DNA from: Acidimicrobiaceae bacterium | GTDB lineage: Bacteria > Actinomycetota > Acidimicrobiia > Acidimicrobiales > Aldehydirespiratoraceae | Assembly: GCA_026706815.1 (NCBI GenBank) | Contig: JAPOYA010000005.1 | Span: forward strand, 2,720 to 66,719 | DNA length: 64,000 bases | Direction: 5' to 3' | Part shown: one piece after another, positions 41,944-63,978 of the stretch | Position numbering within the stretch: position 1 is the stretch's first letter | How the letters are laid out: each line of letters opens with the position of its first letter | Made by a program: the position numbers and the translations under genes | Notes under the pieces: model-generated | Databases searched by the model: none | The model's input: the letters and a program-made list of their open reading frames with translations, nothing else | Told to the model about the DNA's origin: nothing

Positions 41944-41990
41944 GGACCCTGGTTTTCCGGTGTCGCGAAGGCATGGCAGTCTTTAGGCGA

Positions 41991-42127
41991 TCAGCCCAGA
42001 GCCTTGTGCACGATGTCCTGGTCGACCATCGGTACGCCACCGAAGCGGCCTTGGAGGTATCCGCGTTCGAGGTTTGTCGATTTCCGCACGCGGTCTCCAC
42101 GGAAATCCGACAGTGGCGTCAAGGCAG
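41991..42127 (-). pseudogene. 3' remnant (about 45 codons) of an AAA_21 ATPase gene, paralogue of 46593..47894
   Basis: Own translation: LTPLSDFRGDRVRKSTNLERGYLQGRFGGVPMVDQDIVHKALG-stop. The intact copy reads ALTPLSDFRGDRVRKSTNLERGYLQGRFGGVPIVDQYLVREALGIDA. Homology stops at the 47-bp repeat. Confidence 0.75.
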
Positions 42128-42203: not shown

Positions 42204-42635
42204 CTAGACGGTGAGAATTTCGAACGGCAGTTGTGCGATGAGAGCCTTGGGCCATCCGCGGTCAGTCGTTAGCAGTGCTGTGGCATCGTTGACGATCGCG
42301 GTCGCGACCACAAAAGCGTCGGGCAGCTTGAGGGAACTGTATTCGGCTCGAATGCGTGCTGCTCGGCGTGCCGTGTCTGAATCGGCGTTGAGGACCCCGA
42401 TTGGGATCGTCGCGAGCGCTGCTTCGAGTTCTTTGTCAGCACCGCCTCCTGCAGCCATGGGGTGCACGAGGCACTCGGCGAAGGCCGTCACGGGCAGCAT
42501 CAGACGCTCAGCCGTAGCCGCTAGTTGTGAAAGCGCTCGCGTAGCGGCGTGGTGGTGGCGGTCGGATCGGTCAAGGTGTCCGACGATTACCCCGGCATCT
42601 ACGACGGCCAAGCCAGTTGTGTCAGTCCCACTCAT
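42204..42635 (-). CDS. vapC: PIN-domain toxin VapC
   Basis: The track ORF is 42204..42698. The start was trimmed to the ATG at 42635 (MSGTDTTGLAVVDAGVIVGHL). Conserved acidic PIN residues are present (VVDAG, AFAE, LPDAFVVATA, TTD). It overlaps the antitoxin stop. Confidence 0.8.
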   Translation of the reverse strand: MSGTDTTGLAVVDAGVIVGHLDRSDRHHHAATRALSQLAATAERLMLPVTAFAECLVHPMAAGGGADKELEAALATIPIGVLNADSDTARRAARIRAEYSSLKLPDAFVVATAIVNDATALLTTDRGWPKALIAQLPFEILTV

Positions 42636-42870
42636 CGCGGAGTTCTTCGACTGCGCCGTCGGGGTAGATCCCGTCGAAGACACCAGCGGTTTCGGCAATC
42701 CGGTCAGCGACGCGTTCGAACAGGACGCGACCGGGACCCAGTGCTCGGCCTTGCAAAGAGTCGCCTTCGGCCAACCCTGCTGCTGCGAAAGCGCCGGCTG
42801 GGATGGTCACTTGGTGTTTGGAGGTGATCCTCGTCCAACCGGGCCGACGTTTCCTTACTAATTTGGACAT
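42622..42870 (-). CDS. vapB: AbrB/SpoVT-fold antitoxin VapB
   Basis: 82 aa from the ATG at 42870 (MSKLVRKRRPGWTRITSKHQVTIPAGAFAAAGLAEGD), the classic SpoVT/AbrB swapped-hairpin motif. Confidence 0.75.
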   Translation of the reverse strand: MSKLVRKRRPGWTRITSKHQVTIPAGAFAAAGLAEGDSLQGRALGPGRVLFERVADRIAETAGVFDGIYPDGAVEELRDEWD

Positions 42871-43317: not shown

Positions 43318-43414
43318 TTAAATCATTTTCAGATAGTAAAAATATATAATAAGAGCTAAAAAGTCATCATGTACAAGGAAGCATTTGCAAGCTGGGTGCT
43401 GAGTGCCGCCGTTA

Positions 43415-43475
43415 CGCTAGACGGCCCCGGCCGAAGCCGGGGCCGAGGGCCAGGGCTGCTCACCCCGGCGGGGTT
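43415..43475 (-). repeat. ~60-nt double-hairpin element, copy 1 of 3 (reverse orientation)
   Basis: The reverse complement AACCCCGCCGGGGTGAGCAGCCCTGGCCCTCGGCCCCGGCTTCGGCCGGGGCCGTCTAGCG aligns with the copies at 48376 and 61789. Confidence 0.8.
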
Positions 43476-43525
43476 GGTGAGAGCGTACCTGCATCGTCCG
43501 GCGATTGAAACAGAGACCGAGAAAG

Positions 43526-44153
43526 ATGGCTGCTGAACGTGTGACCGCGTACGTGGACGGGTTCAACCTCTACTACGGCCTACTGGAAGCTCGACTTCGG
43601 AGTTCGCGCTGGCTTGACCTGCGCTTTTTGTGTGAGTCGCTGCTGCGTCCCTCTCAGCGACTCACCCTGGTTCGGTATTTCACCAGCATTGTCCGGAACC
43701 AGCCGGATGCAGCCGAACGCCAAGGCATGTACATAGATGCACTTAGAGCGACCGGCCTGATCGAAATCGACTTCGGTCACTTTCTTCCCAAGACAACCTA
43801 CTGCCGGAGGTGTGGTTTCATCCACCGGAGCGCTGAAGAGAAAAAAGACGGATGTGAATATCGCAGTGCGACTCCTTGAGGACGCATATAGCGACCGGTT
43901 CGATCTGGCGATGCTGATTTCGGCGGACAGCGATCTGGTTCCTCCGGTGGAGTCCATTCGTCGGGACTTCCCTGCGAAGACGGTCCTGGTTGCGAGTCCG
44001 CCGAAGCGATGGTCCAGCGAACTTGCCTGCGTCGCACATGCCACAACCAGAATTTCAGGAAAGCGCATCCGATTGAGCCGTCTCTCGGACCCTGTGCGCT
44101 TGGCGGACGGAACGCTGTTACGGGCCCCGCAGGGATGGCTGCCCTCGTCCTGA
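43526..44153 (+). pseudogene. NYN (LabA/DUF88-like) domain protein, +1 frameshift in an A6 run at 43841-43846
   Basis: ORF 43505..43879 (AYVDGFNLYYGLLEARLRSSRWLDL...) and ORF 43812..44153 (TDVNIAVRLLEDAYSDRFDLAMLISADSDLVPPVESIR...) are collinear with the single-frame paralogue at 61100..61723. Confidence 0.7.
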
Positions 44154-45316: not shown

Positions 45317-45934
45317 TCAGTAGATGAATCGGAAACCGAGCGTCTCGCAGAGGTAGCTGTGATTCTTGCGCAGGTGTTTGTCGGCGGCACTGATTCGGCT
45401 GTACCTGCCCAGCGCTTCAAGCAACACGATCTCAAAGGCAGCCCAGTTCAGGTCGCTGTCGACGTCTCTTCGATAACCGATTACGGCGCGAGCTCCGGTA
45501 TTTTCTTGGAATTTTCTGATTCGCGATTCACCGACTCGCATGACCGAACAGGAACCGAAGTGGACTATGCGATTTTCTGCCTGCCCGTCGATCATGGCTT
45601 CGAGATCGTCTAGGGAAACACTGCGTTTGCCGTCGAGCCAGAGTTTTCCTGGACTGCCGTGGAATCCGAAGTAGCCGACTTGATAGTCGGAGTAGCGTTT
45701 CAGCAGCCATTTGTTGAGGTAGTGCTCAAGTTCGGGGATCGTGGCGACTCTGCGGTGAATGAACTTGAGTTCTCCGATTTCTTGGATCGTGTGGAGCATC
45801 GGTTCAATGCTCCAACGGACGCGCAGGTCAAGCTCCCAGTCACCCTCGAACGCGAACACACCGGCGGCTATCGCAGAGCGAGTCGATGCCTCGCGCCCAG
45901 TCGTTGTGGTAGCCGGATGCGCTTGCTTGGCCAT
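45317..45934 (-). CDS. hypothetical protein with a CHAT/caspase-like His...Cys motif order
   Basis: 205-aa ORF containing VGYFGFHGSPGKLWL, IVHFGSCSVM and GARAVIGYRRDVDSDLNWAAFEIVLLEAL. It starts 22 nt after the RloB stop. Confidence 0.55.
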   Translation of the reverse strand: MAKQAHPATTTTGREASTRSAIAAGVFAFEGDWELDLRVRWSIEPMLHTIQEIGELKFIHRRVATIPELEHYLNKWLLKRYSDYQVGYFGFHGSPGKLWLDGKRSVSLDDLEAMIDGQAENRIVHFGSCSVMRVGESRIRKFQENTGARAVIGYRRDVDSDLNWAAFEIVLLEALGRYSRISAADKHLRKNHSYLCETLGFRFIY

Positions 45935-45956: not shown

Positions 45957-46583
45957 TTAACGTGACTGTTCCTCGACAACTTCGATCAGGCGATAGACAC
46001 CCGACGAGGGGTTGTCGTCGGGGAAGGTCTGTCCGGCGTTTTTGTGTCGTTCCGTGAGCCGCCGCGCCCGGTCGACGGCATCCTTTCGTGACTCCATGTA
46101 CAACTTGCTGTCGAGCCCTTTCTCCGGTGATGGGTCGTGTTTGCGGAGGATGCTGCGAGCTTGCTGGTTGTCGATCGGGCGTGTGTGATCCTGGTGGTGC
46201 AGGATGAGCCACAGTTCGAAGCACGGGTTGGATATCGCAACTTTGATGTCGTTGTCTCGAGCCATCTGGATTGCGTCGTGGAGGCGGGAGTGCTGGGTCG
46301 GCACCTCAACATCGAATACACACCAATACTCAGTGCCGGCTTCTTCGTCCGCATGCTCGTCTAGCCGAGCCTGTTTGGCTTCGGCAACGAGTCGGTGTGG
46401 GTCGTAGCCCTTGCCGCGCACATCCAATATTGAGTGCGGGCGGACGTCCGCAAGAGCGTTGAGCGCTGTGAGGTACACAGGTTCCGTGACCTTGCCTTCG
46501 CAATAGATGACGTATCGCTTCCGTTCGTCGATTCGTGGTCGCCGACGGCGCAGGGGTTTCCCTTTCCGATGCCTTGGATTCAC
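45957..46583 (-). CDS. RloB-like (TOPRIM-like) protein
   Basis: 208-aa ORF with RYVIYCEGKVTEPVYL, YWCVFDVE and VAISNPCFELWLILHHQDH motifs. It starts 9 nt after the ATPase stop. Confidence 0.75.
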   Translation of the reverse strand: MNPRHRKGKPLRRRRPRIDERKRYVIYCEGKVTEPVYLTALNALADVRPHSILDVRGKGYDPHRLVAEAKQARLDEHADEEAGTEYWCVFDVEVPTQHSRLHDAIQMARDNDIKVAISNPCFELWLILHHQDHTRPIDNQQARSILRKHDPSPEKGLDSKLYMESRKDAVDRARRLTERHKNAGQTFPDDNPSSGVYRLIEVVEEQSR

Positions 46584-46592
46584 CGCGGGACC

Positions 46593-47894
46593 TCAGGCGT
46601 CGATGCCCAGCGCTTCGCGGACGAGGTACTGGTCAACGATCGGTACGCCACCAAAGCGCCCTTGGAGGTATCCGCGTTCGAGGTTTGTCGATTTCCGTAC
46701 GCGGTCTCCACGGAAATCTGACAGCGGCGTCAAGGCAGTGCTGCCGTCCGCTCCTTTGTCGGTGAGCCACACTTCGTCGCGATTCAGATGGCCGAGCAGG
46801 CTCGTGTCGTGCGTTGTGAAGATCAACTGCGCATTGTGGCGGTTGGTGTCGGGGTCCTGGAACATCTCGACGAGCTTTCCCGAAATCGCCGGGTGCAGGC
46901 TCGAGTCGAGCTCGTCCATCATCAGTGTGCCGCCGTGTTGAAAAACGGTCAGCAGGTCCGGCATCAACGCCAACCAAGCGAGCGTACCGTTTGATTCTTC
47001 GCCCAGTTCCAAAGGGTACGGCGCGCCGATTACGTCGTGCAGCAGCCGCAAACGTCGTCCTCGGTAACGTCCTCGGTAACCCATCTCATCGTCAGAATTG
47101 TCAGCGACCTCCACGTCCAAAACACCGAGGTCGGCAAAGCGAAGCATGGCCAGTGCTTGCACGCGATCGATGTCTCGGTTCGACCTAGTGCTTGCTTCCG
47201 CAGCGGGCGACTCGGGAGTTGTGTCGCCAAAGACTTCGAGCAGTGATTCGTGCCAGTCGTGCCTCCCTCGACCGAATCCGAAACGATGGATTCGGATATC
47301 TGGCGGCATGGACGACTGAGGCCACACACCGATGAACTCGATCCCGAGCACGGCGGTCGCGACCGCGTCGATTTCTTCGGTCAGACGACTGGCAACAGAC
47401 AGGACCAGTGTCGTCGAGGTGATGAGCTCGCGGCCGCCTCCGGTGACTCGGGTACCGCGGCGAAATGCAACCTCGTTGCCCTCGCGGACGAAGAGCGCAC
47501 GACGACGGCCCTGCGGGTAGCTGTACAGAGCTTCGAACTGAACGGACGCGTCGACTTCGAGTTCGTAGCGGTGGCGGACTCCGTTGACCACGATGTCTAG
47601 ACCGAATCCCGTTGGGAGAGTGTCATCGCCACCGAAGGCGAAGGGGTCGCGGGGGATCTCGCGTTCCCATCCTTTCAGCGATGCCCGAATCGCATACTGC
47701 AACCAAGCGAAGCCGTCGAGGACGTTCGTCTTGCCTGAACCGTTGGCCCCGTAGATTCCAGCTACCGTCAGGGCTTTCTCGTCGCCCCAACCCAGCGGTC
47801 GTGCGGCTTCCCGATCGCGGTTCACCGCGATCATCGACAGCTCGACCGGTTCCATGATCGACCGGTGATTCGAGACCTCAAACCGCAGCAGCAC
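46593..47894 (-). CDS. AAA_21/ABC-type ATPase (RloA/AriA-like)
   Basis: 433-aa ORF with Walker A GANGSGKTN, Walker B/D-loop LMMDELDSSLHP and H-loop IFTTHDTSLL. Confidence 0.8.
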   Translation of the reverse strand: MLLRFEVSNHRSIMEPVELSMIAVNRDREAARPLGWGDEKALTVAGIYGANGSGKTNVLDGFAWLQYAIRASLKGWEREIPRDPFAFGGDDTLPTGFGLDIVVNGVRHRYELEVDASVQFEALYSYPQGRRRALFVREGNEVAFRRGTRVTGGGRELITSTTLVLSVASRLTEEIDAVATAVLGIEFIGVWPQSSMPPDIRIHRFGFGRGRHDWHESLLEVFGDTTPESPAAEASTRSNRDIDRVQALAMLRFADLGVLDVEVADNSDDEMGYRGRYRGRRLRLLHDVIGAPYPLELGEESNGTLAWLALMPDLLTVFQHGGTLMMDELDSSLHPAISGKLVEMFQDPDTNRHNAQLIFTTHDTSLLGHLNRDEVWLTDKGADGSTALTPLSDFRGDRVRKSTNLERGYLQGRFGGVPIVDQYLVREALGIDA

Positions 47895-48375
47895 CGACCC
47901 ACCCCTTTCATTCTGAAGCGCAATTAATAGTATGTTTTTGTACTATATCTGCGAAGTTTAGTCTTTACATGCACAATGGGTGCGAATCAAACCGGTGGTT
48001 GGCATCAGCTGAATCACCTTTACCTCGACAGCGACCTCCGACGGGAGTTGGCTCGACCACGCGCAGTAGGGGATTCAGTCTGGTCTGTTTCGATCTGAAG
48101 ATCCACGCGAGTTCGGGCGCCGAATCGCTCGCGAGACTTTTGAGCGCTACGTGCAGTCTCGAGAGAGCACAGAGGTCGAAGACAAGCGCTGAAGTTGGCC
48201 CGTTTTGTCGGCGTCGCCCTGTGGTCACAGGTTCAATGCATCGCTGCTCAGTCGCAGAACAGCTCTGAATTGCATCGTTTCGGCATGTCCGGTCCAGAGC
48301 GAGAGCTACGGCTGAGCCATGCATGTTCTGGACACCTCGTGCACTGACAGACGGTCCAAGGCGATATCATCAGCG

Positions 48376-48436
48376 CACCCCGCCAAGGTGAGTAGCCTTG
48401 GCCCGACGGCCCCGGCTTCGGCTGGGGCTGTTTAGC
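48376..48436 (+). repeat. ~60-nt double-hairpin element, copy 2 of 3
   Basis: CACCCCGCCAAGGTGAGTAGCCTTGGCCCGACGGCCCCGGCTTCGGCTGGGGCTGTTTAGCG. Confidence 0.8.
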
Positions 48437-48625
48437 GTCTGAGCGGAGGCGCGGCGGCAGTATACACTACCGATCGGCGTGCACCGACACGTGAAACTAA
48501 TGGCATGGCTTGCAGATCATGTGACCCGGTGTCCAATGGCACGACTCAGCTCTGTAACTCCGTTAGTGTTTCGTCAGCCAGCCCCGATGTGCCACTTTCG
48601 AGCTGGACCAACGAGATGAAGGATC

Positions 48626-49192: not shown

Positions 49193-50749
49193 ATGGTCAC
49201 GGGGGAGTTGAAACGGCAGATCGATTCTGTTTGGAACGACTTCTGGTCGGGGGGCATCTCGAATCCGCTGGAGGTGATGGAGCAGCTGACTTACCTGCTG
49301 TTCATCAAGGCGCTGGACGAGCAGTAGACGCTCGCGGAGAACAAAGCGAACCGCACCGGCGAGCCGATCCCGGCTGGGGACGACATCTTTCCTGAGAGGC
49401 AGGAGTTCCGGCCTGAGGGGCGCGCTGAGGGTCGGCTGTTTGGCGACCTGCGCTGGTCCCAGTTCAAGAACCGCCCGGCTGGCGAGATGTTTGACATTGT
49501 CGAGAACTATGTATTCCCGTTTCTGCAGGTGCGGGCAGGCGAGAGCAGCCACGCCAAGCATATGCGTGACGCCCGGCTCACGATCCCCACGCCGGCTCTG
49601 TTGCAGAAGGCGGTGGACGGGCTCGATTCGGTCGAGATGCAGGATCGAGACACCAAGGGCGATGTCTACGAGTACATGCTTTCGAAGATCGCGACGGCAG
49701 GCCAGAACGGCCAGTTCCGCACGCCGCGGCACATCATCGAGTTGATGGTCGAGATGACGGCGCCCCAGCCTGATGACCTGATCTGCGACCCCGCCAGCGG
49801 AACGTGCGGCTTCCTGGTCGGCGCCGGGGAGTACATCCGGCGAGAGCATCCGAGTGCGCTCACCAGCCCCGACCAGTCAAAACACTTCCACAACGGGATG
49901 TTCTCGGGCTACGACTTCGACAACACGATGCTGCGGATCGGGTCGATGAACATGCAGCTCCACGGTGTCCAAAACCCGAACATCAGCTACCGGGACTCAC
50001 TGGCCGAGGAACACGCCGGTGATGCTGAGGCCTACAGCCTGATCCTCGCAAACCCGCCGTTCGCTGGCTCGTTGGACTACGAGGGCACAGCCAAGGATCT
50101 CTTGCAGGTCGCCAGGACGAAGAAGACCGAGCTGTTGTTCATCTCGCTCTTCCTGCGCTTGCTCAAGCCAGGCGGCCGAGCGGCGGTCATCGTCCCCGAC
50201 GGTGTGCTGTTCGGCTCAACGAAGGCGCACAAGGAGCTTCGCCGGATCTTGGTTGAGGACCAGAAGCTCGACGGCATCATGTCGCTGCCGGCTGGTGTGT
50301 TTAAGCCGTATGCCGGGGTTTCCACGGCGATCTTGCTGTTCACCAAGACGAACTCCGGGGGGACTGATTTCGTCTGGTTCTACGACCTTCAGGCCGACGG
50401 TCTCAGCCTTGACGACAAGCGCAACCCACTACTCAACGAGGACAAGCTCGGTGCGCTTGCTGGCGCCTTGACCGGCGACGAGCCCGAGAGGAACAACCTT
50501 CCCGATGCGCTCGCACGTTGGCGGCAGCGCGACGGCTCCGAAATCGAGCGGGCGGCGACTGAGCAATCGTTCTGCGTGGCGAAGGCCGACATTGCGGCAA
50601 GCGACTACGACCTCAGCATCAACCGGTACAAGCAGGTCGTCTACGACGAAGCCGACTATGAGCCGCCGACTGTGATTCTCGACGAGCTTGTCGCTCTTGA
50701 GCGGGAGATTCAGGAGGGCATCGATGACCTCAAGGCCGCGCTGGGATGA
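49193..50749 (+). CDS. hsdM: type I R-M N6-adenine methyltransferase HsdM, interrupted by an in-frame TAG at 49325-49327 (longest intact ORF 49487..50749)
   Basis: Own translation from the ATG at 49193: MVTGELKRQIDSVWNDFWSGGISNPLEVMEQLTYLLFIKALDEQ-TAG-TLAENKANRTG..., in the same frame as the track ORF. Motifs DPASGTCGF and LANPPFAG are present. Confidence 0.85.
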
Positions 50750-51702
50750 GGGGACAATTGAGGCTCGTCGTCGATCGAGCGTTTGATGAACTCTGGCAGC
50801 CACTCATGAATTATGATAACTGCCCCCCGAATGTCTTTGGTGAGGTGTTTGCCAGTTTGCGCCCGTTTCTGCGTGAGCCCGAACCGGAGTACGTGAAGGA
50901 AGACGACGGCACAATTCACAACAAAGCGGTCAACCTTGATGATCAGGCCGCACTCGCAATGAGTGACTCAGAAACAGCTGAGATTCTGCTGACCGGTTTG
51001 TCAGAGGAAGACTTTGAGTCAGAGACTGATGCCCGACGAGCCGTCAGTAGCACCTACGGTGTCCTTGTTGACGTAGCGACCGATGAATTCGCGAATAGAT
51101 ACCTCAGTCTTCTTGAGATGTTCATTGACCGATACAGCTTGCGGTACTACGTCGATGAGAGGGCGCGGCTCCGGACCTCGTTTTCGGGACTTGCTACAGC
51201 GTTGTTCGGGCAACTCCGCTTGGCGGCGGAAGGCCACCCTCATCTCTTTCAGGAACTCAGCGCGTTCGAACACGCTTTAGCTGAATGTCTTGAGGAGCCC
51301 TTGGAGGCTCGAATCAAGACAGCTATCCAGAAACAGGTAAACGTTCTCGAAGCCTTTGGTTCACAACATCGTCTCGTTTCTGGCGACACACTAGGACGCA
51401 TGCTCGAGCAGGTCGGCAGCTGGCCACACGCCAGTCTTCGCGACGCTGCGAAACAGGTTTACAAGTTTGCGTGTGACTACCCAGGTATTCGTCACGGAGG
51501 CGACTTCGAATCATCTATGCGCGCACTGGATCTGCGTGATCTAACCAGCGTCACGCTTTCACTCGTCGGGCTGGTCGCGTACATGGCTGACGGCTTCGAG
51601 GAGCAAGTTGTCTCCGCGATGCAGGGCGATCTCGTTCCGGCTGTCACTCTCAGCAACTCTTTGGCATCTCGGACTTCTGAACATGCGGGCGGAGCGAGTT
51701 AG
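50746..51702 (+). CDS. uncharacterised protein embedded between hsdM and hsdS
   Basis: 318-aa ORF. Its ATG overlaps the hsdM TGA (ATGA), and its stop is 3 nt before the hsdS ATG. GC content is visibly lower than in the core genes. No family was recognised with confidence. Confidence 0.6.
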   Translation: MRGQLRLVVDRAFDELWQPLMNYDNCPPNVFGEVFASLRPFLREPEPEYVKEDDGTIHNKAVNLDDQAALAMSDSETAEILLTGLSEEDFESETDARRAVSSTYGVLVDVATDEFANRYLSLLEMFIDRYSLRYYVDERARLRTSFSGLATALFGQLRLAAEGHPHLFQELSAFEHALAECLEEPLEARIKTAIQKQVNVLEAFGSQHRLVSGDTLGRMLEQVGSWPHASLRDAAKQVYKFACDYPGIRHGGDFESSMRALDLRDLTSVTLSLVGLVAYMADGFEEQVVSAMQGDLVPAVTLSNSLASRTSEHAGGAS

Positions 51703-51705
51703 CCC

Positions 51706-52830
51706 ATGACGTGGTCTTCTAGATCCGACGTTGCGTTGGGTGACGTGAAGTGGCCTATTGCTCGCCTTCACGATGTAGCGACCATAGAAAGGAACGCAGT
51801 ATCGGTGGATCAGATCCAGGGAGGCGAGTTTTATGTTGGCTTGGAGAATGTGACCAGTGACGGAGTGTTCGAGAACGTGGTGACGGCGGGCAAGGCGGGC
51901 TTGAAGAGCAACAAATTCGCCTTTACCGAGGATCACGTGCTCTACGGCAAGCTACGTCCGTACCTCGCCAAGATCTCCGCACCTGACTTCGCTGGTATCT
52001 GCAGCACCGACATACTCCCCATTAGACCAGGTGCCAGACTTGACCGTCGCTACTTGCTGCACTATCTGCGAACGCCGACAATGGTTACCCATGCGGCGAG
52101 CAACGCCGTGGGAATAAATCTTCCCCGACTAAATCCGAAGGCATTAGAGTCATTCCAGATTCCACTGCCACCGATTGAGGAGCAGCGGCGGATTGCAGCT
52201 GTGCTGGATGCGGCTGAGACGCTCCGGGCGAAGCGCCGTCAGGCGCTCGCCACGTTCGACACGCTGACTCGGGCGATCTTCATCAGCATGTTTGGCGACC
52301 CGATTTTGAGGTCGATGCAGTTGGATTTGGTTCCACTTGGCGACCTTCTCAAACTGAAGAGTGGGCAAGGGCTGTCGGCGAAGGCGATGCGGCCCGGTCC
52401 TCATCTGGTGTACGGCGGGAACGGCGTAGTGGGGACGCACGACGAGTACATGTTTGAAGGATCCAAAATCGTGATCGGTCGGGTGGGTGTTTATTGCGGT
52501 TGCGTCCATATATCTGAGCCACGGAGTTGGATAACGGACAACGCGCTCTACGTCAGCTGGATGAGCTCACGCCTCCGCACGACGTACCTCGCTGCGGCTC
52601 TCGATCTGGCAAATCTGAATCGACGGGCGAGCCAAGCCGCCCAGCCTCTGATCTCTGGTGGACGTATCTATCCGGTCGAGATTCCCGTACCGCCTCTCAA
52701 TTCCCAGCACGTCTTCGAGGAGAGAACCCGAGCGATCACAGAGCATCGAATTCGGATCGAAGAGGGTGCCGAGAAGTTGAACGAGCTGTTCGCGTCGCTG
52801 CAGCAGCGGGCGTTTCGGGGGGAGTTGTGA
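51706..52830 (+). CDS. hsdS: type I R-M specificity subunit HsdS
   Basis: 374-aa ORF with two target-recognition halves, each followed by a conserved helix (LPPIEEQRRIAAVLDAAETLRAKRR and PVPPLNSQHVFEERTRAI...LFASLQQRAFRGEL). Confidence 0.85.
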   Translation: MTWSSRSDVALGDVKWPIARLHDVATIERNAVSVDQIQGGEFYVGLENVTSDGVFENVVTAGKAGLKSNKFAFTEDHVLYGKLRPYLAKISAPDFAGICSTDILPIRPGARLDRRYLLHYLRTPTMVTHAASNAVGINLPRLNPKALESFQIPLPPIEEQRRIAAVLDAAETLRAKRRQALATFDTLTRAIFISMFGDPILRSMQLDLVPLGDLLKLKSGQGLSAKAMRPGPHLVYGGNGVVGTHDEYMFEGSKIVIGRVGVYCGCVHISEPRSWITDNALYVSWMSSRLRTTYLAAALDLANLNRRASQAAQPLISGGRIYPVEIPVPPLNSQHVFEERTRAITEHRIRIEEGAEKLNELFASLQQRAFRGEL

Positions 52831-55800
52831 GCGAGTCGCAGTTCTCGTTCCTCGAGGCTGAGTTTCAGCCGGAGCTCGATTCGGCGTCGCGGGCCGAGGG
52901 GTACGCGCTGTCGGACCCGGGAGCTGCAGTCATCTACGCGCGCAAGTGCCTCGAGTCGGCTGTCAAGTGGATGTACCGGCACGACCGTGCGCTGGCCGAG
53001 CCGTACGACGCGACGCTCGGTGCACGGTTGAACGATGCCGCCTTCAAGGCGCTGGAGGGTGGCCGGATCTTCGATGTGGCAAGAAAGATCCAGCGGGCGG
53101 GGAACCGTGCGGTGCACGAGTCGAAGGCGCCGTCGAAGCTGGAGACGGTCGAGATCATCTCGGCGCTGTTCCAGTTCTGCCTCTGGTTCGCGTTTACCTA
53201 CGGCCGCACCTCGAAACCCGACCTGTCGCTGCGGTTCAACCCTCACCGACTGCTGGACGCGGGCGAAGCCGAGCGGGCTTCGCTGCGCGAGCGCCAGGAG
53301 CTCGAGAAGCAGCTTGAGCATGAGACCGAAGAGCGCGTTGCAGCGCAGATGCGGCTGGCGGAATCGAGCCGTACCGCCGAGGAGCTGAACGCCGAGCTGG
53401 CGGAGCTGCGCGCAGAGGTCGCTGCGGCGAAGAAGAAGGCGGCCGAGACGGTCCCGCCGGAGGCCTTCGACTGGTCTGAGGCCGAGACGCGCGAGTTCAA
53501 GATCGACGCTCTGCTGGCTGAGGCCGGCTGGACCGGTCTCGTGGAGGGCCGTGACACCGAGTACGAGGTGCGCGGGATGCCCTCCGAGTCGGGCATCGGC
53601 TACGTGGACTATGTGCTGTGGGGCGCCGATGGCAAACCGCTCGCCGTCGTGGAGGCCAAGAAGGCGCTGACGGATCCGAAGGTCGGCGAGCAGCAGGCCA
53701 AGCTCTATGCCGACTGCTTGGAGGCCGAATCCGGCCAGCGGCCGCTCATCTACTGCAGCAACGGCTATGAGCACTGGCTGTGGGACGACACTCAGTATCC
53801 GTCCCGTCGGGTGCAAGGGTTCTGCACCCGCGACGAGCTGGCCTGGCTCATCCAGCGTCGCACGGGTTTCAAGTCGCTGGCATCACTGGACGCCGGCGAG
53901 CAGATCGTCGACCGCCATTACCAGCGGCGGGCGATCAGCGCCATCACCGAGCACTTCGAGCACAGCAACCAGCGCAAGGCATTGCTGGTGATGGCGACGG
54001 GTGCGGGCAAGACCCGCACGGTGATCGCTTTGGTGGATCTGCTGATGCGAGCCGGGTGGGTGAAGCGGGTGCTGTTCCTGGCCGATCGCACGGCGCTCGT
54101 GAATCAGGCCGTGAACGCCTTCAAGACGAACCTGCCCGACTCGGCGCCGGTGAACCTGGTGACCGAGGGCAACGTGGACGGCCGGGTGTACGTGTCGACC
54201 TATCAGACGATGGTCGGCAAGATCGACGAGTACCGGGCCGACGGGACCCGCCGGTTCGGGGTGGGGCACTTCGACCTGGTGGTGATCGACGAAGCGCACC
54301 GGTCGGTGTACCGGAAGTACCGGGGCATCTTCGAGTACTTCGACTCGCTGCTGGTGGGCCTGACCGCGACTCCCAAGGATGAGGTCGACAAGAACACCTA
54401 CGACCTGTTCGACCTGGAGACGGGCGTGCCCACTGACGCCTATTCGCTGGACGATGCCATCAAGGACGGGTATTTGGTGCCGCCCCAGGGTGTGTCGGTC
54501 GAGCTCAAGTTCGTGCGCGAGGGCATCAAGTACGACGAGCTGAGCGACGACGAGAAGGACGATTGGGACGAGCTGGACTGGGGCACCGACGATGAGGGCG
54601 ATCCGCTGGATCCGCCCGACGCAGTCGACCCCGCCGAGCTCAACAAGTGGCTCTTCAACAAGGACACCGTCGACCGTGTGCTCGAGCATCTGATGACCGA
54701 GGGCGTCAAGGTGGCCGGCGGCGACCGGCTGGGCAAGACGATCATCTTCGCCAAGAACCAGAAGCACGCCGAGTTCATCAAGGAGCGCTTCGACGCCAAC
54801 TACCCATCGCTGGATGCAGGCAACTTCGCCCGGGTCATCACGCACCAGGTGAAGTACGGCCAGAGCCTGATCGACGACTTCTCCAACAAGACGAAGGCGC
54901 CCCACATCGCGATCAGCGTGGACATGCTGGACACCGGCATCGACGTGCCCGAAGTCGTCAACTTGGTGTTCTTCAAGATGGTGCGGTCGAAGACCAAGTT
55001 CTGGCAGATGCTGGGCCGGGGGACTCGGCTGTGTCCGGACCTGTTCGGGCCCGGCGAGCACAAGACGCACTTCAACGTGTTCGACTTCTGTCAGAACCTC
55101 GAGTACTTCAGCCAGGCGCTCGTGCCAGCAGAGAAATCGACCGGCAAGTCGCTCAGCGAGATCCTGTTCTCGGCGAGGTTGGAGCTTCTGCAGACGCTCG
55201 ACTCGGTGGCGGCGTTCGGCGACGAACGGGCCGAGATCGCAGCCACGCTGCACCGGACTGTGGAGTCGATGAACCCCGACAACTTCCTGGTGCGCCCTCA
55301 CTTGGAATTGGTGGAGCGGTTCAGCACGTTGGCTGCGTGGGAGACAGTGTCATTGGCGGACTTGGCTGAACTCAATGAGCGAGTTGCCAAGCTGCCCGAC
55401 CAACTCGATGCCGACAGCGAGGACGCCAAACGCTTCGACGTGGTGATGCTGAACGCGCAGCTTGCTCTGCTGCGGCAATACCCGTTCGAGCGGCAACGGC
55501 GGCGGATCATCCGCGTTGCCTCCGCGCTGGCGGACCTTGGCACGGCCATTCCCGTCGTGGCCCGGCAGCAGGAGTTGATTGCGGACGTCCAGACCGACGA
55601 ATGGTGGGCCGACGTCACCTACCCGATGCTCGAAGACGCCCGCAAGCGGTTGCGCAACCTCGTGCAACTCATCGAGTACACCAACAAGAACATCCTCTAC
55701 AGCGACTTCGCCGATGAGTTCGGTGGGGCCAGGATGGTTGACTTGCCTGGCACCGGTGGAGCGGGTGGGGCTGGCGATGCTGGGGGCGGCGACGGCGGTG

Positions 55801-56294
55801 GCGTTGGTGGCGATGGCCGCGACGAGTTCGCCCAGTTCCGCAAGAAGGCGCAGAACTTCCTGAAGGAGAACCTTGCCGATGACATCGTGGCCAAGGTCCG
55901 CAGCGGCGAGCCGTTGACTGCGGCTGACATGGACGACCTGCAGCGAGTGCTGGTTGCCGCCGGCATCGGTGACGACGAGACCTTTGCCGAGGCATCACAG
56001 TGGGCCGGCAGCTTCGGGTTGTTCATCCGCTCGTTGGTGGGACTCAACCGGGCCGCCGCTAAGCGCGCTTTCGCCAAGTTCCTCGACGACAAGCAATACA
56101 ACGTCAACCAGATCCGCTTCGTCGAAATGGTGATCGACTACCTGACCGAGCACGGCACCATCGAGAGCGGGCGCGTCTACGAGTCACCCTTCACGTCCGT
56201 TGCGCCCCAAGGTCCCGAAGCTCTGTTCGCCGAGCCCGACCAAGCCGACTTCTTCCAAATCATCCAACACCTCCAAAGCACCGCCACGGCCTGA
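52827..56294 (+). CDS. hsdR: type I R-M restriction subunit HsdR (DUF4145-type N-terminus, SF2 helicase)
   Basis: The track ORF is 52527..56294. The start was trimmed to the GTG at 52827, overlapping the hsdS stop (GTGA). It has an HSDR_N-like nuclease region ([22 protein letters not shown]), Walker A [9 protein letters not shown] and the DEAH box VIDEAHRS. A Gly-rich insert ([23 protein letters not shown]) lies near the C-terminus. Confidence 0.85.
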   Translation: [1155 protein letters not shown]

Positions 56295-59258: not shown

Positions 59259-59723
59259 CTAGTCGACACGGGCAATCTTTGGCCGGCTCTCAGTTCGTGG
59301 TCGTAGAGCGCCGTGGATTGTCGGATCGCCCTCGTTCTTGAGGAGATGCTGAGTGATCGAGCAGATCTTCCATCCAACAGGACGCCGTACCAAGCCGAAC
59401 TCGTAGGTACCCCACGAGTGAAAATGGCGATCTCCGTTGCGCTCGAATCTGTCGATCCGATAGTCGCACGTGGCCCTCGCGTGATCGTCGGACTCGAACG
59501 AGACAGCGAGGTTGCTATGGGTGTGCTGCATCACCAGATCGCCCAGCGCCTGCTTCCGCGCGGTCACGTATTCGCCAGCTAGGACACGAGATGGATCCGT
59601 GCCGCGAAACGACGAGTAGTCGATGAAGACTTCGTCATCCAGGCACTCACGCAGCGCCATCCAATCGTGTTGGTCGAACGCCTGCTCAAAGCGACAGATC
59701 AACTCCGAAATGTGCTGATCCAC
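59259..59723 (-). CDS. SnoaL-like / NTF2-fold protein
   Basis: 154-aa ORF. The segment ELICRFEQAFDQHDWMALRECLDDEVFIDYSS...W is the typical SnoaL_4-like pattern. Confidence 0.65.
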   Translation of the reverse strand: MDQHISELICRFEQAFDQHDWMALRECLDDEVFIDYSSFRGTDPSRVLAGEYVTARKQALGDLVMQHTHSNLAVSFESDDHARATCDYRIDRFERNGDRHFHSWGTYEFGLVRRPVGWKICSITQHLLKNEGDPTIHGALRPRTESRPKIARVD

Positions 59724-59840
59724 GAGGAACTCCTCACAAGAACCGATGCGTCACGTAGGCCTGATCCACCTCATATGTGTATCGCCAGTCGCGGTTATCC
59801 GCATTTGCGTGGACTGGAACCTTGCTGTAGCCAAGCCCCT

Positions 59841-60779
59841 ATGAATGTGGGGCCGTTGCGGTTTTTTCATGTCAATGTGAACTGCTCCGACTTGGAACGG
59901 TCGCTGGAGTTCTATCGCGACCGCATAGGGCTGAGGCCGACCGTCCGCACCCGTCCAGAACACCCCAGCCGGGATCGGTCTTCGGGCTCAAGGAGGTGCA
60001 GTGGGACGCATGGATGTTGGCCGGCGATGACGCTGCCGGGGGAACATTGCTTTGATCTGTTGGAATGGAAGTTCCCGGTTGGGGAGGGGTCGCCGCCCGA
60101 GACTGTGTTCGAGTTGGGCTTCAGCCGGCTGTGCATCACGAGCGACGACCTGGCTGGTTTGCATCAACAACTGACCGAGACCGGGCACGACGTCTGGTCG
60201 CCACCGGTACGGCCGGGCAACGAAGCCGAAGACCTGACCGGCCGCGAGTACTTCCTGTGCTCCGACCCCGACGGCACATCGCTGCAGTTCGTCCGTGGCG
60301 ACAGCACCCGCCTGGCGGGCGTCAACGTGAACTGCTCCGACTTGGAACGTTCACGCCACTTCTACTGCGACGTGCTCGGACTGGAAGCCCAGCATCGCTT
60401 TACCTCTGCTGACCCTCAACCGGTTGAAGGATTCGGCGCAGAAGACATGCTGAGCTGGGACGCTTGGCGCATCGGTGGTTCCGACGGCGACTCCGGCCAG
60501 TTCACCCTCGATCTGGTGGAGTGGAAATCACCGAAAGCCGGCCGCTCGGCTCAACGGCGAGCCAACGAACTGGGGATCTTCCGCATGGCCCTGCTCACCG
60601 ATGACATCGACCGGGACTACGCCGCGCTCCTCAACGCAGAGATCACATGCTTCCCCCCGCCTGTGGCGCTGGAGATGGGACCCGGACTTCCCTCAGATCT
60701 GCGGGCCCTGTTCTTTCTCGATCCCGACGGCACCTGTGTCGAACTGATCGAGAGTCCACGGACGGACCAATCGACCTAG
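59841..60779 (+). CDS. two-domain VOC (glyoxalase/dioxygenase) family protein; domain 1 carries a frame-scrambled ~30-codon stretch
   Basis: The track ORF is 59667..60779, with an ATG at 59841. The duplicated module is VNVNCSDLERS..FY.D..GL...DL(L/V)EWK.P. See the finding on compensating frameshifts. Confidence 0.7.
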   Translation: MNVGPLRFFHVNVNCSDLERSLEFYRDRIGLRPTVRTRPEHPSRDRSSGSRRCSGTHGCWPAMTLPGEHCFDLLEWKFPVGEGSPPETVFELGFSRLCITSDDLAGLHQQLTETGHDVWSPPVRPGNEAEDLTGREYFLCSDPDGTSLQFVRGDSTRLAGVNVNCSDLERSRHFYCDVLGLEAQHRFTSADPQPVEGFGAEDMLSWDAWRIGGSDGDSGQFTLDLVEWKSPKAGRSAQRRANELGIFRMALLTDDIDRDYAALLNAEITCFPPPVALEMGPGLPSDLRALFFLDPDGTCVELIESPRTDQST

Positions 60780-60845
60780 GCTGAGGGGACCGCACCCGGG
60801 GTTGCCAGCCGGATCGGTCGGCCAGCTGATCGGCCCGGGAGAGAG

Positions 60846-61000
60846 TCAACTCCGCGCAGTGATGACCACCAGATCGGTTGGGGGTTGGTATTCGGCGTCT
60901 GGGAGCACCGTGACCGATCGGCGGCGGCCCACGACTTGGGCGAGCAGGCGCGTCCCGTCGGGCTCAACCGCTATTCCTCTGGCTCGAAGGGGCGTCTGAT
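60846..61000 (-). pseudogene. displaced 3' fragment (~50 codons) of a cobW-like GTPase gene
   Basis: The C-terminus of track ORF 60846..61460 reads PLRARGIAVEPDGTRLLAQVVGRRRSVTVLPDAEYQPPTDLVVITARS-stop. The intact gene reads TLRAKGIAATPDGARLLAQVVGRRRSVTVLPDAESQPATDLVVIT. Confidence 0.65.
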
Positions 61001-61099
61001 CGTGGCCGGCGGTTTGGAGCAGGTGCTGCGGTTGGCCGTTCGAACGGTCGACATCGCGGGCCTGAAACCGGCCATGTCTGCTCGGGTCTACAACGACTG

Positions 61100-61723
61100 C
61101 TAAGCAGGATTTGGGGTTGGTAGCCATCCTTGTGGTGCCCGCAGCACAACACCCTCGGGTGTGATTACTGGATCTGGGAGACGGTTCGACCGGATAGCGG
61201 CACGCGAGACCTGGAACGCAGCGTGTGCCGACTGGGCGAGGTCCGCAGACCAGCGCTTTGGAGGAGAGGCCACGATTACGCGCTTGCGACGGAAGCGCTG
61301 CCGGACAGCCTCGACGCTTGGCACAAGGTCGCTGTCGCCGGAGATGACCATTGCCATGTCGAAGCGGTCCTCGTAGGCATCGGAGAGGAGCCGAACCGCG
61401 ATGTTCACGTCTGTCCGCTTCTCCTCGTTCTTGGTCCACTGCGTGTTGCACGTGCGGCAAGTCACCTGCTTGGACATGAACAGCCCGAAGTCAATCTCGA
61501 TACCTCCCCTGGTACGGAGAGCGTCAATGAAGATTGCCTGACGTTTTGCTGCGGCCGGGTCGTTGCGAACGCTGGTGGTGAAGTAGCGGACTAGGTCGAG
61601 GCGTTGGCCGGGCTTGAGGAGTGATGAGCAGACACCGTGAAGGTCAAGCCAGCGGGAGGTTCGAAGGCGCGCGTCAAGGAGGCCGTAGTAGAGGTTGTAC
61701 CCGTCGATGTAGGCGATGACTCG
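61100..61723 (-). CDS. NYN (LabA/DUF88-like) domain protein with an inserted CxxC zinc-ribbon-like segment; start codon unresolved
   Basis: Track ORF 61100..61477 plus my in-frame upstream translation (RVIAYIDGYNLYYGLLDARLRTSRWLDLHGVCSSLLKPGQRLDLVRYFTTSVRNDPAAAKRQAIFIDALRTRGGIEIDFGLF). There is no in-frame ATG, GTG or TTG upstream of 61477. Confidence 0.7.
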   Translation of the reverse strand, partial: RVIAYIDGYNLYYGLLDARLRTSRWLDLHGVCSSLLKPGQRLDLVRYFTTSVRNDPAAAKRQAIFIDALRTRGGIEIDFGLFMSKQVTCRTCNTQWTKNEEKRTDVNIAVRLLSDAYEDRFDMAMVISGDSDLVPSVEAVRQRFRRKRVIVASPPKRWSADLAQSAHAAFQVSRAAIRSNRLPDPVITPEGVVLRAPQGWLPTPNPA

Positions 61724-61788
61724 TTCCCTTGACCCGATCCGACGACGATACCTGTCCTTCTGTCGCAGGGTGCTGATATCTTTAAGTA

Positions 61789-61849
61789 CAACCCCCCCAG
61801 GGTGAGTAACCCTGGGCCGACGGCCCCGGCTTAGGTCGGGGCTGTCTCG
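61789..61849 (+). repeat. ~60-nt double-hairpin element, copy 3 of 3
   Basis: CAACCCCCCCAGGGTGAGTAACCCTGGGCCGACGGCCCCGGCTTAGGTCGGGGCTGTCTCG. Confidence 0.8.
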
Positions 61850-62037
61850 TTTTGTACGCGCGCCGCCGGATCATGACCGCAAGGATCTGTAATGCAATGG
61901 GTTGCATTGACCGCGAAAGCGAGAAAGTCCCTGATCCGGCCCCTTGGATTTGGCTTGATCGGGAGCGTACTTGCTGGTGAGTCGGCGGGGTCGCCGGGCG
62001 GTGGCTCAGCGATGGAATTCGTACTCAACAGGGCGAA

Positions 62038-62940
62038 TCAGGTACCGGCTACACCCCGGTCGTTCGCCGCTGCGTCTTGACGCCAAGGCGCAGACTCGTC
62101 GTCCAGAGTGTCGAACATGAGCGTGGCCACTAGGAGAGCTGCCCCGGCAGCCAACCGTCCATGTCGACTCGTTAGGTGTACCGGAGGCTCGGCTCTGCCG
62201 TGCCCCGTGCCTCGCTCACCCCGAAGCTCGTTCATCTCCAAGGCGATTTGGACAACGCCGCCGAGGATCTTGCGAACGGGATCCATCACATCTTCTCGTT
62301 GTTCACGTGCGCTCTTCGGGTGCAACATCAGCACCTGCAGCGCCCGTGTGACAAGCGCCGGATACTTGGCCGGGGGCGTTTCGCCGACACGATTCAGAAC
62401 GATCTTGGATGTTGACTCTAGGAGTTCCTTGCTTGAGCCCAGCAACAAGGCCGAGTCGCCATCGCCGAGTGCTAGGCGCAGCCTTCGGACGTGATCACGA
62501 ACTACTGCCTCGTCTGGAAGTGTCGAGGCATCGACGAGTGATCCAAGATCCGGCGCGGTCTTGCCGTCCTCGAGCAGCGTAAGTCCGTAGGGCTCAAGTG
62601 ATTCTGCAAGCTGTCCAACTACAGCTTCGTTCGCGGCATAGGGGGTCGATCTATCAAAGACTCGGTCACGTCGAAGCAGCCCAAGAAGTTCTTCCACAAG
62701 TGGTATCAAGTCTTGGCGTTCGACCAGCTTTATGGCTTTGCTAACTCGGTCGCGTTTGCTGCCGATTTCTACAACGACCCCGAAGGTGTTCAAAACGTCA
62801 CTGACTTCACCGTGGGTTGGCCCGGCGCCGCCCGCCCAGAAGTCGGCGACGGCGCGTGCGAGGCGTGCGCGCTGACGCTCTTCGGCAGAGGGGGGCATAG
62901 GTGAAGCGTAGAGCACGATCCCGACATTGAACGTAGACAC
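62038..62940 (-). CDS. abortive-infection family protein (Abi_C-type C-terminal domain)
   Basis: 300-aa ORF. The segment LLLGSSKELLESTSKIVLNRVG...IALEMNELRGERGTGHGR...RHGRLAAGAALLVATLMFDTL matches my recollection of the Abi_C (PF14355) pattern. Confidence 0.7.
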   Translation of the reverse strand: MSTFNVGIVLYASPMPPSAEERQRARLARAVADFWAGGAGPTHGEVSDVLNTFGVVVEIGSKRDRVSKAIKLVERQDLIPLVEELLGLLRRDRVFDRSTPYAANEAVVGQLAESLEPYGLTLLEDGKTAPDLGSLVDASTLPDEAVVRDHVRRLRLALGDGDSALLLGSSKELLESTSKIVLNRVGETPPAKYPALVTRALQVLMLHPKSAREQREDVMDPVRKILGGVVQIALEMNELRGERGTGHGRAEPPVHLTSRHGRLAAGAALLVATLMFDTLDDESAPWRQDAAANDRGVAGT

Positions 62941-62958
62941 CCTGGCTGGGATTGAGCG

Positions 62959-63978
62959 CTAACTGAGCACGTTGTTCGAGTTCCTCGTGGCGCGTCGCCT
63001 AGTCTGGGACAGCGTTGGGTTTGAGGATGGCGCAGCAGGAACAGACGCCGGGGCCGCAGGGTATAGACGTGGGGTGATTACCACCAGGTCGGTAGCTGGT
63101 TGGGATTCGGCGTCGGGAAGCACGGTGACCGAACGGCGGCGGCCAACGACTTGGGCGAGCAGGCGGGCGCCGTCGGGGGTCGCCGCAATCCCCTTGGCGC
63201 GCAGCGTCGCTGGTGGCAAAGCGTCGATCATCGCTTCAAACTCGGCCTGGGTGATGGGCCGGGGCACCGCGACAGTCGCGACTTCGTGTACATCGAACAG
63301 GTTCGCCGGTCCGGTGTCGGCCACTCCACCGGGGCGACGAGTCGCCAAGTCGACAAAAGAGGCAGTCGAAACTGCGTCGTCGCTGTTCAGAATCGGGATG
63401 CCGGGAGCACAATCCCGCAGGATCGAGCGGCTCTTGGCTGCATCACCTGACGATGCGAGGTCGAGTTTGGTGAGGACGAACAGGTCGGCCGCCCTGAGTT
63501 GGGCTGCCACATAATCAGCAGTCACCGGATCATTGCACCGCTCCGGAAACTGATCGGCGTCGACCAGCACCACGACACCGTCCAGCGAAAACCCCGGCGA
63601 GGAGGCCCAAGGCACCACCCGAGCCGGATCGGCAATACCGCTCAGCTCCACAATCACGTGATCAGGAGGAGCCTCCCGTTCCCGCAAGCCGTCGAACGCC
63701 TCCGCCAAACCCCCGGCGAGACTGCAACAGACGCATCCGTCGGTCAATTCAATGGTGTCGCCATGACGACGACGAACCAGCGATGCATCGACGTTCACCG
63801 CACCGACATCGTTCACCAGCACCGCGATCGGCTGATCGGTCCGAGCCAGCACCTCGTTGATGACCGTCGTCTTGCCCGCCCCGAGATACCCCCCAAGCAG
63901 GGTGACCGGCACCCGGCGACCGTCCCAAGGGGCGATTATCCCCAAATCAAGGTCTGCCAAAGGTTCCTCGCTGTCCAC
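62959..63978 (-). CDS. CobW/G3E-family GTPase (zinc metallochaperone-like) with a non-homologous 37-codon C-terminal tail
   Basis: 339-aa ORF with P-loop GGYLGAGKTTVINEVL and the CxCC motif DGCVCCSL. The tail PRLYPAAPASVPAAPSSNPTLSQTRRRATRNSNNVLS begins exactly where the displaced fragment at 60846 ends in ARS-stop. Confidence 0.85.
   Translation of the reverse strand: MDSEEPLADLDLGIIAPWDGRRVPVTLLGGYLGAGKTTVINEVLARTDQPIAVLVNDVGAVNVDASLVRRRHGDTIELTDGCVCCSLAGGLAEAFDGLREREAPPDHVIVELSGIADPARVVPWASSPGFSLDGVVVLVDADQFPERCNDPVTADYVAAQLRAADLFVLTKLDLASSGDAAKSRSILRDCAPGIPILNSDDAVSTASFVDLATRRPGGVADTGPANLFDVHEVATVAVPRPITQAEFEAMIDALPPATLRAKGIAATPDGARLLAQVVGRRRSVTVLPDAESQPATDLVVITPRLYPAAPASVPAAPSSNPTLSQTRRRATRNSNNVLS

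Follow-up and report, generated by a model that had tools for sequence, protein, structure and literature searches.

The 64,000-nt stretch analysed here (hereafter the window; Acidimicrobiaceae assembly GCA_026706815.1, contig JAPOYA010000005.1, positions 2,720 to 66,719) carries a cobW-like GTPase gene whose 3′ end, about 150 nt long, is present twice, with 2.2 kb of DNA held between the two copies. Our comparisons support the view that this 2.2-kb stretch is horizontally acquired DNA, without a recombinase of its own, that recombined into the last ~100 nt of cobW. The reading is carried by direct observations: the repeat itself, empty sites in relatives, the native tail of the gene, the position of the junction and the presence of the same cassette in a second background. 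The locus represents clear yet fairly ordinary turnover at a defence-gene hotspot, and no new type of system.

A repeated cobW 3′ end and the junction within it

Both copies of the repeat lie on the reverse strand, one at the end of the gene (63061-63210, proximal and attL-like) and the other downstream of it (60846-60995, distal and attR-like). A repeat search aligned 60859-60994 with 63074-63209 over 136 ungapped nucleotides at 80% identity and a spacing of 2215, and the local alignment score of the two copies was 142, compared with 21.3 ± 2.6 (maximum 32) for 500 shuffles. A DNA profile made from the terminal 200 nt of cobW in 19 orthologs recovered the distal fragment at 60847-60995 (nhmmer, E = 4.5e-33) and no further cobW fragment in the window. 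Direct repeats derived from the target gene's 3′ end are thus confirmed on both sides of the insert, at a similarity far above chance. A preliminary description of this DNA, made from the sequence alone, had proposed that the last ~50 codons of cobW are duplicated, with about 85% identity over some 105 nt and decay beyond; both proposals hold on formal alignment.

The cobW gene as now read (62959-63978, reverse strand; 339 aa) matches Pfam PF02492 (3.2e-39) and CobW_C PF07683 (4e-07). Its close orthologs, 19 out of 19, end in DLVVI(T/N/S)xRx followed by a stop, at query residue ~304-307, which places the ortholog end at position 63064. Where the orthologs carry the stop, the window has a TAC codon (63061-63063, reverse strand, by ortholog alignment), and the reading frame runs through VVITPRL, TAC and 34 extra codons to a TAG at 62959-62961, which bears out the 37 unrelated codons after VVIT that had been described earlier. 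Since the stop of the incoming tail is now TAC, the protein has gained 34 residues. The same read-through occurs in contig L175 (loci and contigs of relatives are numbered with the prefix L), which is 99.1% identical to the window from within cobW across the lost stop and the downstream Abi_C gene. The extension (62941-63063, reverse strand) stops 18 nt short of the Abi_C start codon, and a promoter scan found no sigma-70-like promoter in 60700-63300; Abi_C may therefore depend on transcription from cobW, possibly with translational coupling.

To place the locus among its relatives, we scanned 185,579 species genomes, which yielded 80 cobW loci with a best amino-acid identity of 86%; the comparison covers 64 kb from the source and, in each relative, 17-21 kb surrounding cobW. 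The window is also represented in NCBI by a metagenome-assembled contig (proteins MCY3849450.1 and MCY3849451.1) and in Logan by an identical contig, L081. Upstream of cobW the window is syntenic with L001 and L002 at 88-89% nucleotide identity. The preliminary description had looked to related genomes for empty as against occupied sites, and empty sites exist; the refuting outcome it had named, an arrangement shared by relatives with no empty site, did not arise. In L003 the cobW stop directly adjoins a convergent glyoxalase gene, and in L002 it is followed by a flank homologous to that beyond the distal fragment of the window. This native downstream flank (60780-60845) covers the 66 nt up to the stop codon of the convergent glyoxalase-family gene, which has two domains (59667-60779, forward strand), and the post-stop homology with L002 amounts to 89% over 46 nt, then 82% over 142 nt.

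The two ends of the gene have different affinities. The 3′ part of the distal fragment (60846-60930, reverse strand), which ends VVITARS with a TGA stop at 60846-60848, is together with its flank 90.4% identical to the functional tail and flank of L002 and bears the clade-specific signatures CCCAGAC and GGAGTTGACTCTCTCCCGG; these affinities identify it as the displaced native tail of cobW. The proximal tail, the portion of the proximal repeat 3′ of the junction block described below, now ends the gene and is of a type foreign to the clade. Its TPRL ending is encoded ACC CCA CGT CTA, in the L004/L009/L011 group TPRL-stop is encoded ACC CCC CGG CTC TAA, and the tail differs synonymously from all orthologs sampled. 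In the final ~156 columns of the alignment, identity to the L004-L013 clade (84-86%) exceeds identity to the window's own clade L001-L003 (79-83%), whereas the rest of cobW shows the opposite affinity. The tail that now ends the gene is thus of a different, TPRL type and arrived with the insert, as the preliminary description supposed when it read the arrangement as an element-borne 3′ end displacing the original. L001 presents the same pattern, its fragment being of the native-clade type and its functional tail not.

The junction between the exchanged and the resident sequence can be placed narrowly. The longest in-register exact match between the two copies is a 20-nt block, CGCCTGCTCGCCCAAGTCGT (also given as CTGCTCGCCCAAGTCGTGGGCCGCCGCCG), and the next longest is 11 nt. 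The block lies at 63146-63165 in the proximal copy, where it encodes R-L-L-A-Q-V-V and marks the putative crossover site, and at 60931-60950 in the distal copy, where it forms the right-hand junction of the exchanged segment (both on the reverse strand). Mismatches between the copies number 19 out of 50 on the 5′ side of the block and 11 out of 70 on the 3′ side (Fisher p = 0.0096). The strongly diverged 5′ part of the distal fragment (60951-60995, reverse strand) is carried along with the cassette, and none of 159 orthologs matches it at more than 68% identity. The distal 3′ part reaches 81-88%, and for the other three quarters of the two repeats identity to the close orthologs L001-L014 is 79-89%. 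Given the low identity of its 5′ part to all orthologs and the change in divergence at the block, the distal fragment is a mosaic: at the block, an old and diverged piece of cobW-like sequence gives way to the native tail.

Direct evidence of exchange at this point comes from Logan contig L174 (DRR466688), found through a C-terminal peptide search as a 76-aa open reading frame. It carries the end of Abi_C, the spacer, the hairpin element, the NYN gene, a scrap of an oxidoreductase gene and the 5′ part of the distal fragment, all described below. Left of the block, the window and L174 are identical at 1129 of 1154 positions (97.8%; 99.3% in the NYN gene), whereas right of it they agree at only 113 of 154 (73.4%; 77/88 in the tail and 36/66 in the flank; Fisher p = 4.6e-24), and L174 ends in ISPRS-stop, as does L002. 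Two strains that differ in native background thus carry the same cassette, and what they share ends on the right at the 20-nt block. The computational alignment that had been recommended for locating the crossover places it at this block, at which identity to L174 drops from 97.8% to 73%. On the left-hand side, clade-informative sites are few and noisy and indicate, without settling, a switch near -150 to -180 nt. That the 5′ part of the proximal copy cannot be clearly assigned to the native clade suggests that the left crossover lies further upstream in cobW.

A separate irregularity is found in the body of the gene. Identity of cobW to L001 and L002 is 90-92% over the first half of the gene and just 80-83% over the middle third (alignment columns 450-800, window ~63530-63180), a region across which L001 and L002 remain 88% identical to each other. 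This suggests an extra, older recombination tract within cobW.

A composite cargo between the repeats

The preliminary description had listed a NYN-domain gene, a copy of a double-hairpin element and an Abi_C-type gene as all that the repeats enclose. These three are present, and a 99-nt scrap of a further gene also lies among them. Acquisition of the insert is supported, as had been claimed, but as a composite rather than as a unit. The G+C content of the cassette (0.55-0.63, against 0.63-0.66 for comparison) is slightly lower and not diagnostic.

The Abi_C-domain gene (62038-62940, reverse strand) encodes 300 aa from a GTG at 62940 or 286 aa from an ATG at 62898, and its domain (PF14355, 9.2e-13) scores 48.5 bits against a cut-off of 24 over residues 194-277. 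Each of its 78 homologs either carries PF14355 or is itself a fragment; PADLOC returned a weak AbiJ match only (E = 0.006). Homologs at 79-84% nucleotide identity occur in the unrelated islands L082, L084 and L085, in which homology stops within ~30 nt of the reading frame (62934-62010), a pattern that marks Abi_C as an independently mobile single-gene module. A spacer of 170 nt separates it from the hairpin element.

The NYN-domain RNase gene (61100-61735, reverse strand; PF01936, 7.5e-14) belongs to the HEC-09 candidate-defence family (PADLOC, 1.8e-80), the profile match spanning positions 2-202 of 203. Homologs begin M-x-x-ERVIAYIDG, and the start codon, which is ATG or GTG in four homolog contexts, is GGG in the window (61733-61735), the frame being otherwise intact. 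NCBI calls the gene from an ATC codon (P0079) and other gene callers from an internal ATG, giving 125 aa. As its start codon is gone, the cassette NYN gene is probably silent. Homologs (82-84% nucleotide and 84-88% amino-acid identity) stand alone between unrelated housekeeping genes in L087, L088, L169 and L172, in which homology begins at the hairpin element and ends at the stop codon. Abi_C and NYN occur together only in this strain group. We considered a conserved two-gene Abi_C and NYN system and rejected it, since close homologs of the two never co-occur and are never found at cobW. The preliminary description had also proposed searching for the cassette at other loci: the same cassette is found in L174, and its two genes are found singly in unrelated contexts. 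From family membership only, the two products are presumed to be abortive-infection or RNase effectors; the type representative of HEC-09 gave no protection against any phage tested (bioRxiv 10.1101/2024.01.29.577857).

The additional piece is an internal scrap of an LLM-class (luciferase-like) oxidoreductase gene, 33 codons or 99 nt at 60996-61094 (forward strand), which we regard as debris within the cassette. It matches amino acids 118-150 of the L006 LLM protein (tblastn, 63.6%, E = 2e-5) and the DNA of L006 and L013 (blastn, 74-76%). Full LLM and HAD genes lie downstream of the PIG-L deacetylase gene in L006, L009 and L013, and in L006 and L013 a cobW fragment lies just past them, so the scrap hints at the arrangement of the putative donor.

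The double-hairpin element of ~98 nt (61770-61867, forward strand) is a conserved upstream module of HEC-09-type NYN genes and is found 40-110 nt upstream of every such homolog examined. Further copies lie in the window at 43399-43494 (forward) and 48358-48450 (reverse), and at L087 5805-5891, L088 5880-5962, L172 7883-7964, L169 741-820 and L003 12100-12193; loci with Abi_C homologs lack the element. The better fold is that of the strand antisense to NYN (RNAalifold, 20 pairs, 4 with compensatory changes), on which G-U pairs stand where the sense strand would have A.C mismatches, and the second hairpin of the element together with UCUCGUUUU resembles an intrinsic terminator (terminator-like site at 61819-61846, forward strand). 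No Rfam match was found at E ≤ 1 in 38-64 kb of the window, hairpin element included. By analogy with type I toxin-antitoxin modules, the element may give rise to a small antisense RNA acting as a regulator of the RNase gene. Its conserved position upstream of HEC-09 NYN genes everywhere examined led us to reject the hairpin as a cassette boundary, an attC-like site or a miniature inverted-repeat transposable element.

Some copies of these modules are eroded. The hairpins at 48358-48450 (reverse strand) of the window and at L003 12100-12193 have no NYN gene after them and presumably remain from NYN modules that were deleted. A second HEC-09-type NYN gene of the window (43505-44153, forward strand), preceded by its own hairpin, is split by a frameshift into reading frames 43505-43879 and 43812-44153, which match HEC-09 in PADLOC at 5e-37 and 7e-35 over profile positions 2-105 and 102-202, respectively. 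L087 carries a 73-nt tandem duplication over the NYN start region (5907-5940 and 5980-6013; 34-nt unit, 91% identity).

How the cassette entered cobW

Second cobW 3′ fragments, on the same strand and downstream of cobW, are found with unrelated cargo in at least four other lineages. L001 encloses a DUF6338 membrane-protein gene, with the 5′ limit of its fragment at -90 (in nucleotides from the end of cobW); L005, L011 and L004 enclose a PDC-M32A-like gene and a PIN gene (limits -137 and -98); and in L006 and L013 the fragment lies past PIG-L, LLM and HAD genes (-56 and -81). In L107, whose cobW is just 60% identical to that of the window, a fragment of 87 nt and 90% identity, starting at -86, follows LLM, PhyH and MCP genes. 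The limits in L001, L107 and L013 fall within ~10 nt of one another, beside the block of the window (-88 to -105), whereas those in L005, L006 and L011 lie away from it, and overall the extents vary from -56 to -150 nt. The distal fragments of L001, L005 and L006 share a derived C-to-T change (GAATCTCAA), from which it follows that some fragments are old and inherited. Apparent second copies in L026 and L067 were dropped as artefact or chance. The cassettes consist mostly of defence genes, one or two each.

A recombinase was sought in several ways. The open reading frames of at least 150 aa in the ~24-kb island around the cassette were run through Pfam or PADLOC, a few of them returning no match; neither in the cassette, in line with the preliminary description, nor among the island frames with matches was an integrase or transposase found. 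Reading the open reading frames of the occupied loci of relatives by eye revealed no integrase, and a phmmer search with the integrase of L084 gave no match among 113 frames of at least 170 aa lying within 8 kb downstream of cobW at 24 loci. A Pfam census of 62 of these 113 contained one DDE transposase and no recombinase among the 25 of 63 families listed. No cobW-tail-like attP was found in viral contigs: a tail-peptide search of IMG/VR gave 159 pattern matches, of which 0 were confirmed. The search for a cognate recombinase elsewhere, which had been suggested earlier, thus found none among the island frames with matches or at the 24 related loci, with partial genomes in view.

On this basis, the topology of the event is established from sequence comparison. 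Incoming DNA brought its own cobW-like segment to the last ~100 nt of the resident cobW; strand exchange within the 20-nt RLLAQVV-coding block joined the resident gene to the incoming tail, which now ends the gene; and the resident tail, with its stop and native flank, was displaced 2.2 kb downstream. This could have taken the form of a Campbell-type single crossover of a circularised cassette, or of a right-hand crossover of a linear fragment from a donor hotspot that already held a cobW fragment. As to the enzymology, we consider homology-guided exchange by host homologous recombination the most likely route, with moderate confidence. It is favoured because no recombinase is in view, because the fragments vary in extent and come with debris and non-defence cargo, and because the block is the only identical stretch of sufficient length for strand exchange, with hints that the left crossover took place upstream of it. 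Islets that lack mobile-element genes and spread through recombination at the core genes beside them have been documented (PMC13617665; PMC10250203). Of the "site-specific or homology-guided" insertion proposed earlier, the insertion is supported; the two modes are not fully separable, and the evidence leans towards the second.

Several points weigh against host homologous recombination. The three independent fragments that start within ~10 nt of one another (L001, L107 and L013) are what a site-specific core predicts, and one of them occurs in a lineage with only 60% cobW identity (L107). Homologous recombination on a 20-nt block within ~85%-identical DNA is inefficient, and the model leaves the origin of the first duplication in each clade unexplained. 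Furthermore, the left-hand junction of L174 was not recovered, which makes single and double crossovers indistinguishable, and a recombinase could be encoded beyond the 64 kb of the source genome and the 17-21 kb per relative.

The clustering of junctions lends some weight to a second reading, possible though doubtful, in which the insert is a decayed or satellite element resembling a cis-mobilizable element (CIME), with attL and attR in the 3′ end of cobW and an attB core in the QVVGRRR-coding block, moved by a recombinase acting in trans, from the chromosome or from a related element with the same integration site. An element-borne tail in the proximal position and a native tail in the distal one are as in integrative islands, and CIMEs and their accretion are an established mechanism (PMC5704250). 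Junctions recur in one ~25-nt zone in the window, L174, L001, L013 and the distant L107, with no cobW homology upstream of that zone in L001, L013 and L107, as expected for a short core; the cassette genes are also co-oriented with cobW in the five closest occupied loci (the window, L001, L004, L005 and L011). Against this stand the searches described above, in which neither an integrase nor a phage or provirus contig with a cobW-tail-like attP was found. Further, the 5′ limits of the fragments are not uniform (-56, -98, -137 and -150), and the window and the L005 group have 45-60 nt of additional cobW homology upstream of the block. A bolder proposition, which we consider unlikely, is that the RLLAQVVGRRR-coding block at the end of cobW is a dedicated attachment site, at which an unrecognised trans-acting system shuttles small recombinase-less cassettes in and out of cobW across Acidimicrobiia. 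If true, cobW would be an integron-like acquisition platform.

Homology-facilitated illegitimate recombination of linear foreign DNA, anchored on the left by cobW homology and joined illegitimately on the right within the resident tail, would duplicate that tail de novo and needs no recombinase. The scattered 5′ limits of the fragments across loci are consistent with it, and gene scraps such as that of the LLM gene and remnants of earlier cassettes (70 nt in L005) are typical of such joins. It leaves unexplained, however, why the distal 5′ part is homologous to cobW, highly diverged and travels with the cassette, and why the divergence switch in the window and the junction between the window and L174 fall in the same 20-nt block; we consider it quite improbable.

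Lastly, an old local duplication or cobW paralogue remnant, with Abi_C and NYN having landed independently in between, would fit both the independence of the two modules elsewhere and the derived C-to-T change shared by some fragments, but it is very improbable and in its form as a tandem duplication or paralogue remnant was rejected. The two tails differ in type, and the 5′ and 3′ parts of the mosaic fragment differ in history. From the Abi_C end to the 5′ part of the fragment, the sequence is 98% identical to that of a strain with another native tail (L174). In addition, the functional tail and flank of L002 are orthologous to the distal 3′ part with its flank at 88-90%, the divergence expected of functional cobW and thus a mark of recent displacement.

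The defence hotspot and comparison with known systems

The cassette forms the cobW edge of a variable defence island of ~24 kb (38922-62958), bounded by the core genes for the PIG-L deacetylase (38163-38921) and cobW. These two genes lie ~700 bp apart in L009, as against ~24 kb in the window, and the content of the region differs among L001, L005, L006 and L013. With its fixed core flanks and enrichment in defence genes, the region is a core defence hotspot.

Comparable regions in Pseudomonas aeruginosa, cDHS1 and cDHS2, likewise vary between fixed core genes, are packed with defence genes and differ among relatives (PMC10250203). Between 29 and 47% of core-hotspot sites lack mobile-element genes, and transfer by recombination at the conserved flanks has been proposed (PMC10250203). 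Unlike in cDHS1 and cDHS2, one of the flanking genes here has itself been recombined, and a datable scar pins the crossover to ~20 nt. A similar parallel exists with toxin-antitoxin and defence islets, which consist of one or two genes without mobile-element genes and are gained, eroded and replaced (PMC13617665); erosion is evident here in the lost NYN start codon and the frameshifted second NYN copy. Flank exchange in such islets normally proceeds without duplication, whereas here a crossover in an internal cobW repeat creates or maintains the direct repeat.

CIMEs are defined in PMC5704250, and integrative elements accrete at the 3′ end of protein genes, as at fda in Streptococcus thermophilus. 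The cassette resembles them in being small, in having no integration or transfer genes, in being flanked by direct repeats from the 3′ end of its target and in lying beside other acquired DNA; in both, the element-borne tail preserves gene function. It differs from them in that no integrase-bearing element is found here at ~25 related loci and in that its repeats are long (up to 150 nt), diverged and variable in extent, whereas CIMEs have a short exact core. The kind of element, a recombinase-less defence islet with an att-like scar at a hotspot between core genes, is a known one; cobW as the target and Acidimicrobiia as the phylum are new for such scars.

Genomic islands and prophages inserted at the 3′ ends of genes for tRNA, tmRNA or proteins supply a replacement 3′ end (Williams 2002, as cited in PMC10250203) and encode an integrase, usually adjoining the att site. 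The locus shares with them a native 3′ fragment at the far end, a replacement end on the gene and reuse of the site, and differs in that no integrase was found here. Like integron cassettes, the inserts carry one or two promoter-less genes, co-oriented with the upstream gene and with folded elements between them; unlike in integrons, no IntI or attI was found here, and the hairpin is tied to NYN genes only, with a conserved position before their start. Integrons are not known from the phylum.

How defence genes move without a nearby mobile-element gene is an open practical question, for which this locus leaves an unusually readable scar: the displaced tail, the empty site and the second background together fix the exchange junction to 20 nt. 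It can serve as a test case for homology-guided as against site-specific turnover of hotspot cassettes. Since at least five lineages of uncultured Acidimicrobiia, marine or environmental, show this scar with differing cargo, the cobW tail is usable as a marker for new candidate defence genes in the phylum.

The rest of the island is rich in defence genes. It includes a type I restriction-modification operon, hsdM, hsdS and hsdR (49487-56294, forward strand), whose hsdR has an N-terminal DUF4145 and which contains, between M and S, an unannotated 318-aa gene (50746-51702) with no Pfam match and a weak match to PDC-S32. An AbiL system (8e-83) is made up of AbiLii (45957-46583) and AbiLi (46593-47894), and there are a PDC-S01 gene (AAA_14/DUF4143; 39948-41177, 4.7e-96), a solitary RloB/AbiLii-like gene (41303-42100) and a PIN toxin gene (42204-42698). 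A DUF6642 gene (45317-45934), Fic/Doc and PIN toxin-antitoxin modules, HNH and ASCH genes, the two HEC-09 genes and Abi_C are also part of the island.

Finally, the DUF6338 gene recurs at this position in relatives. It stands at the cobW edge in L001 (9130-9792), L006 (9137-9814) and L014 (9113-9772), and in L005 only a ~70-nt remnant of its 5′ region (9083-9154) is left, before a different cassette. In L082, ~5.6 kb separate it from an Abi_C homolog. It is possible that DUF6338 is a so far unrecognised gene of defence islands.

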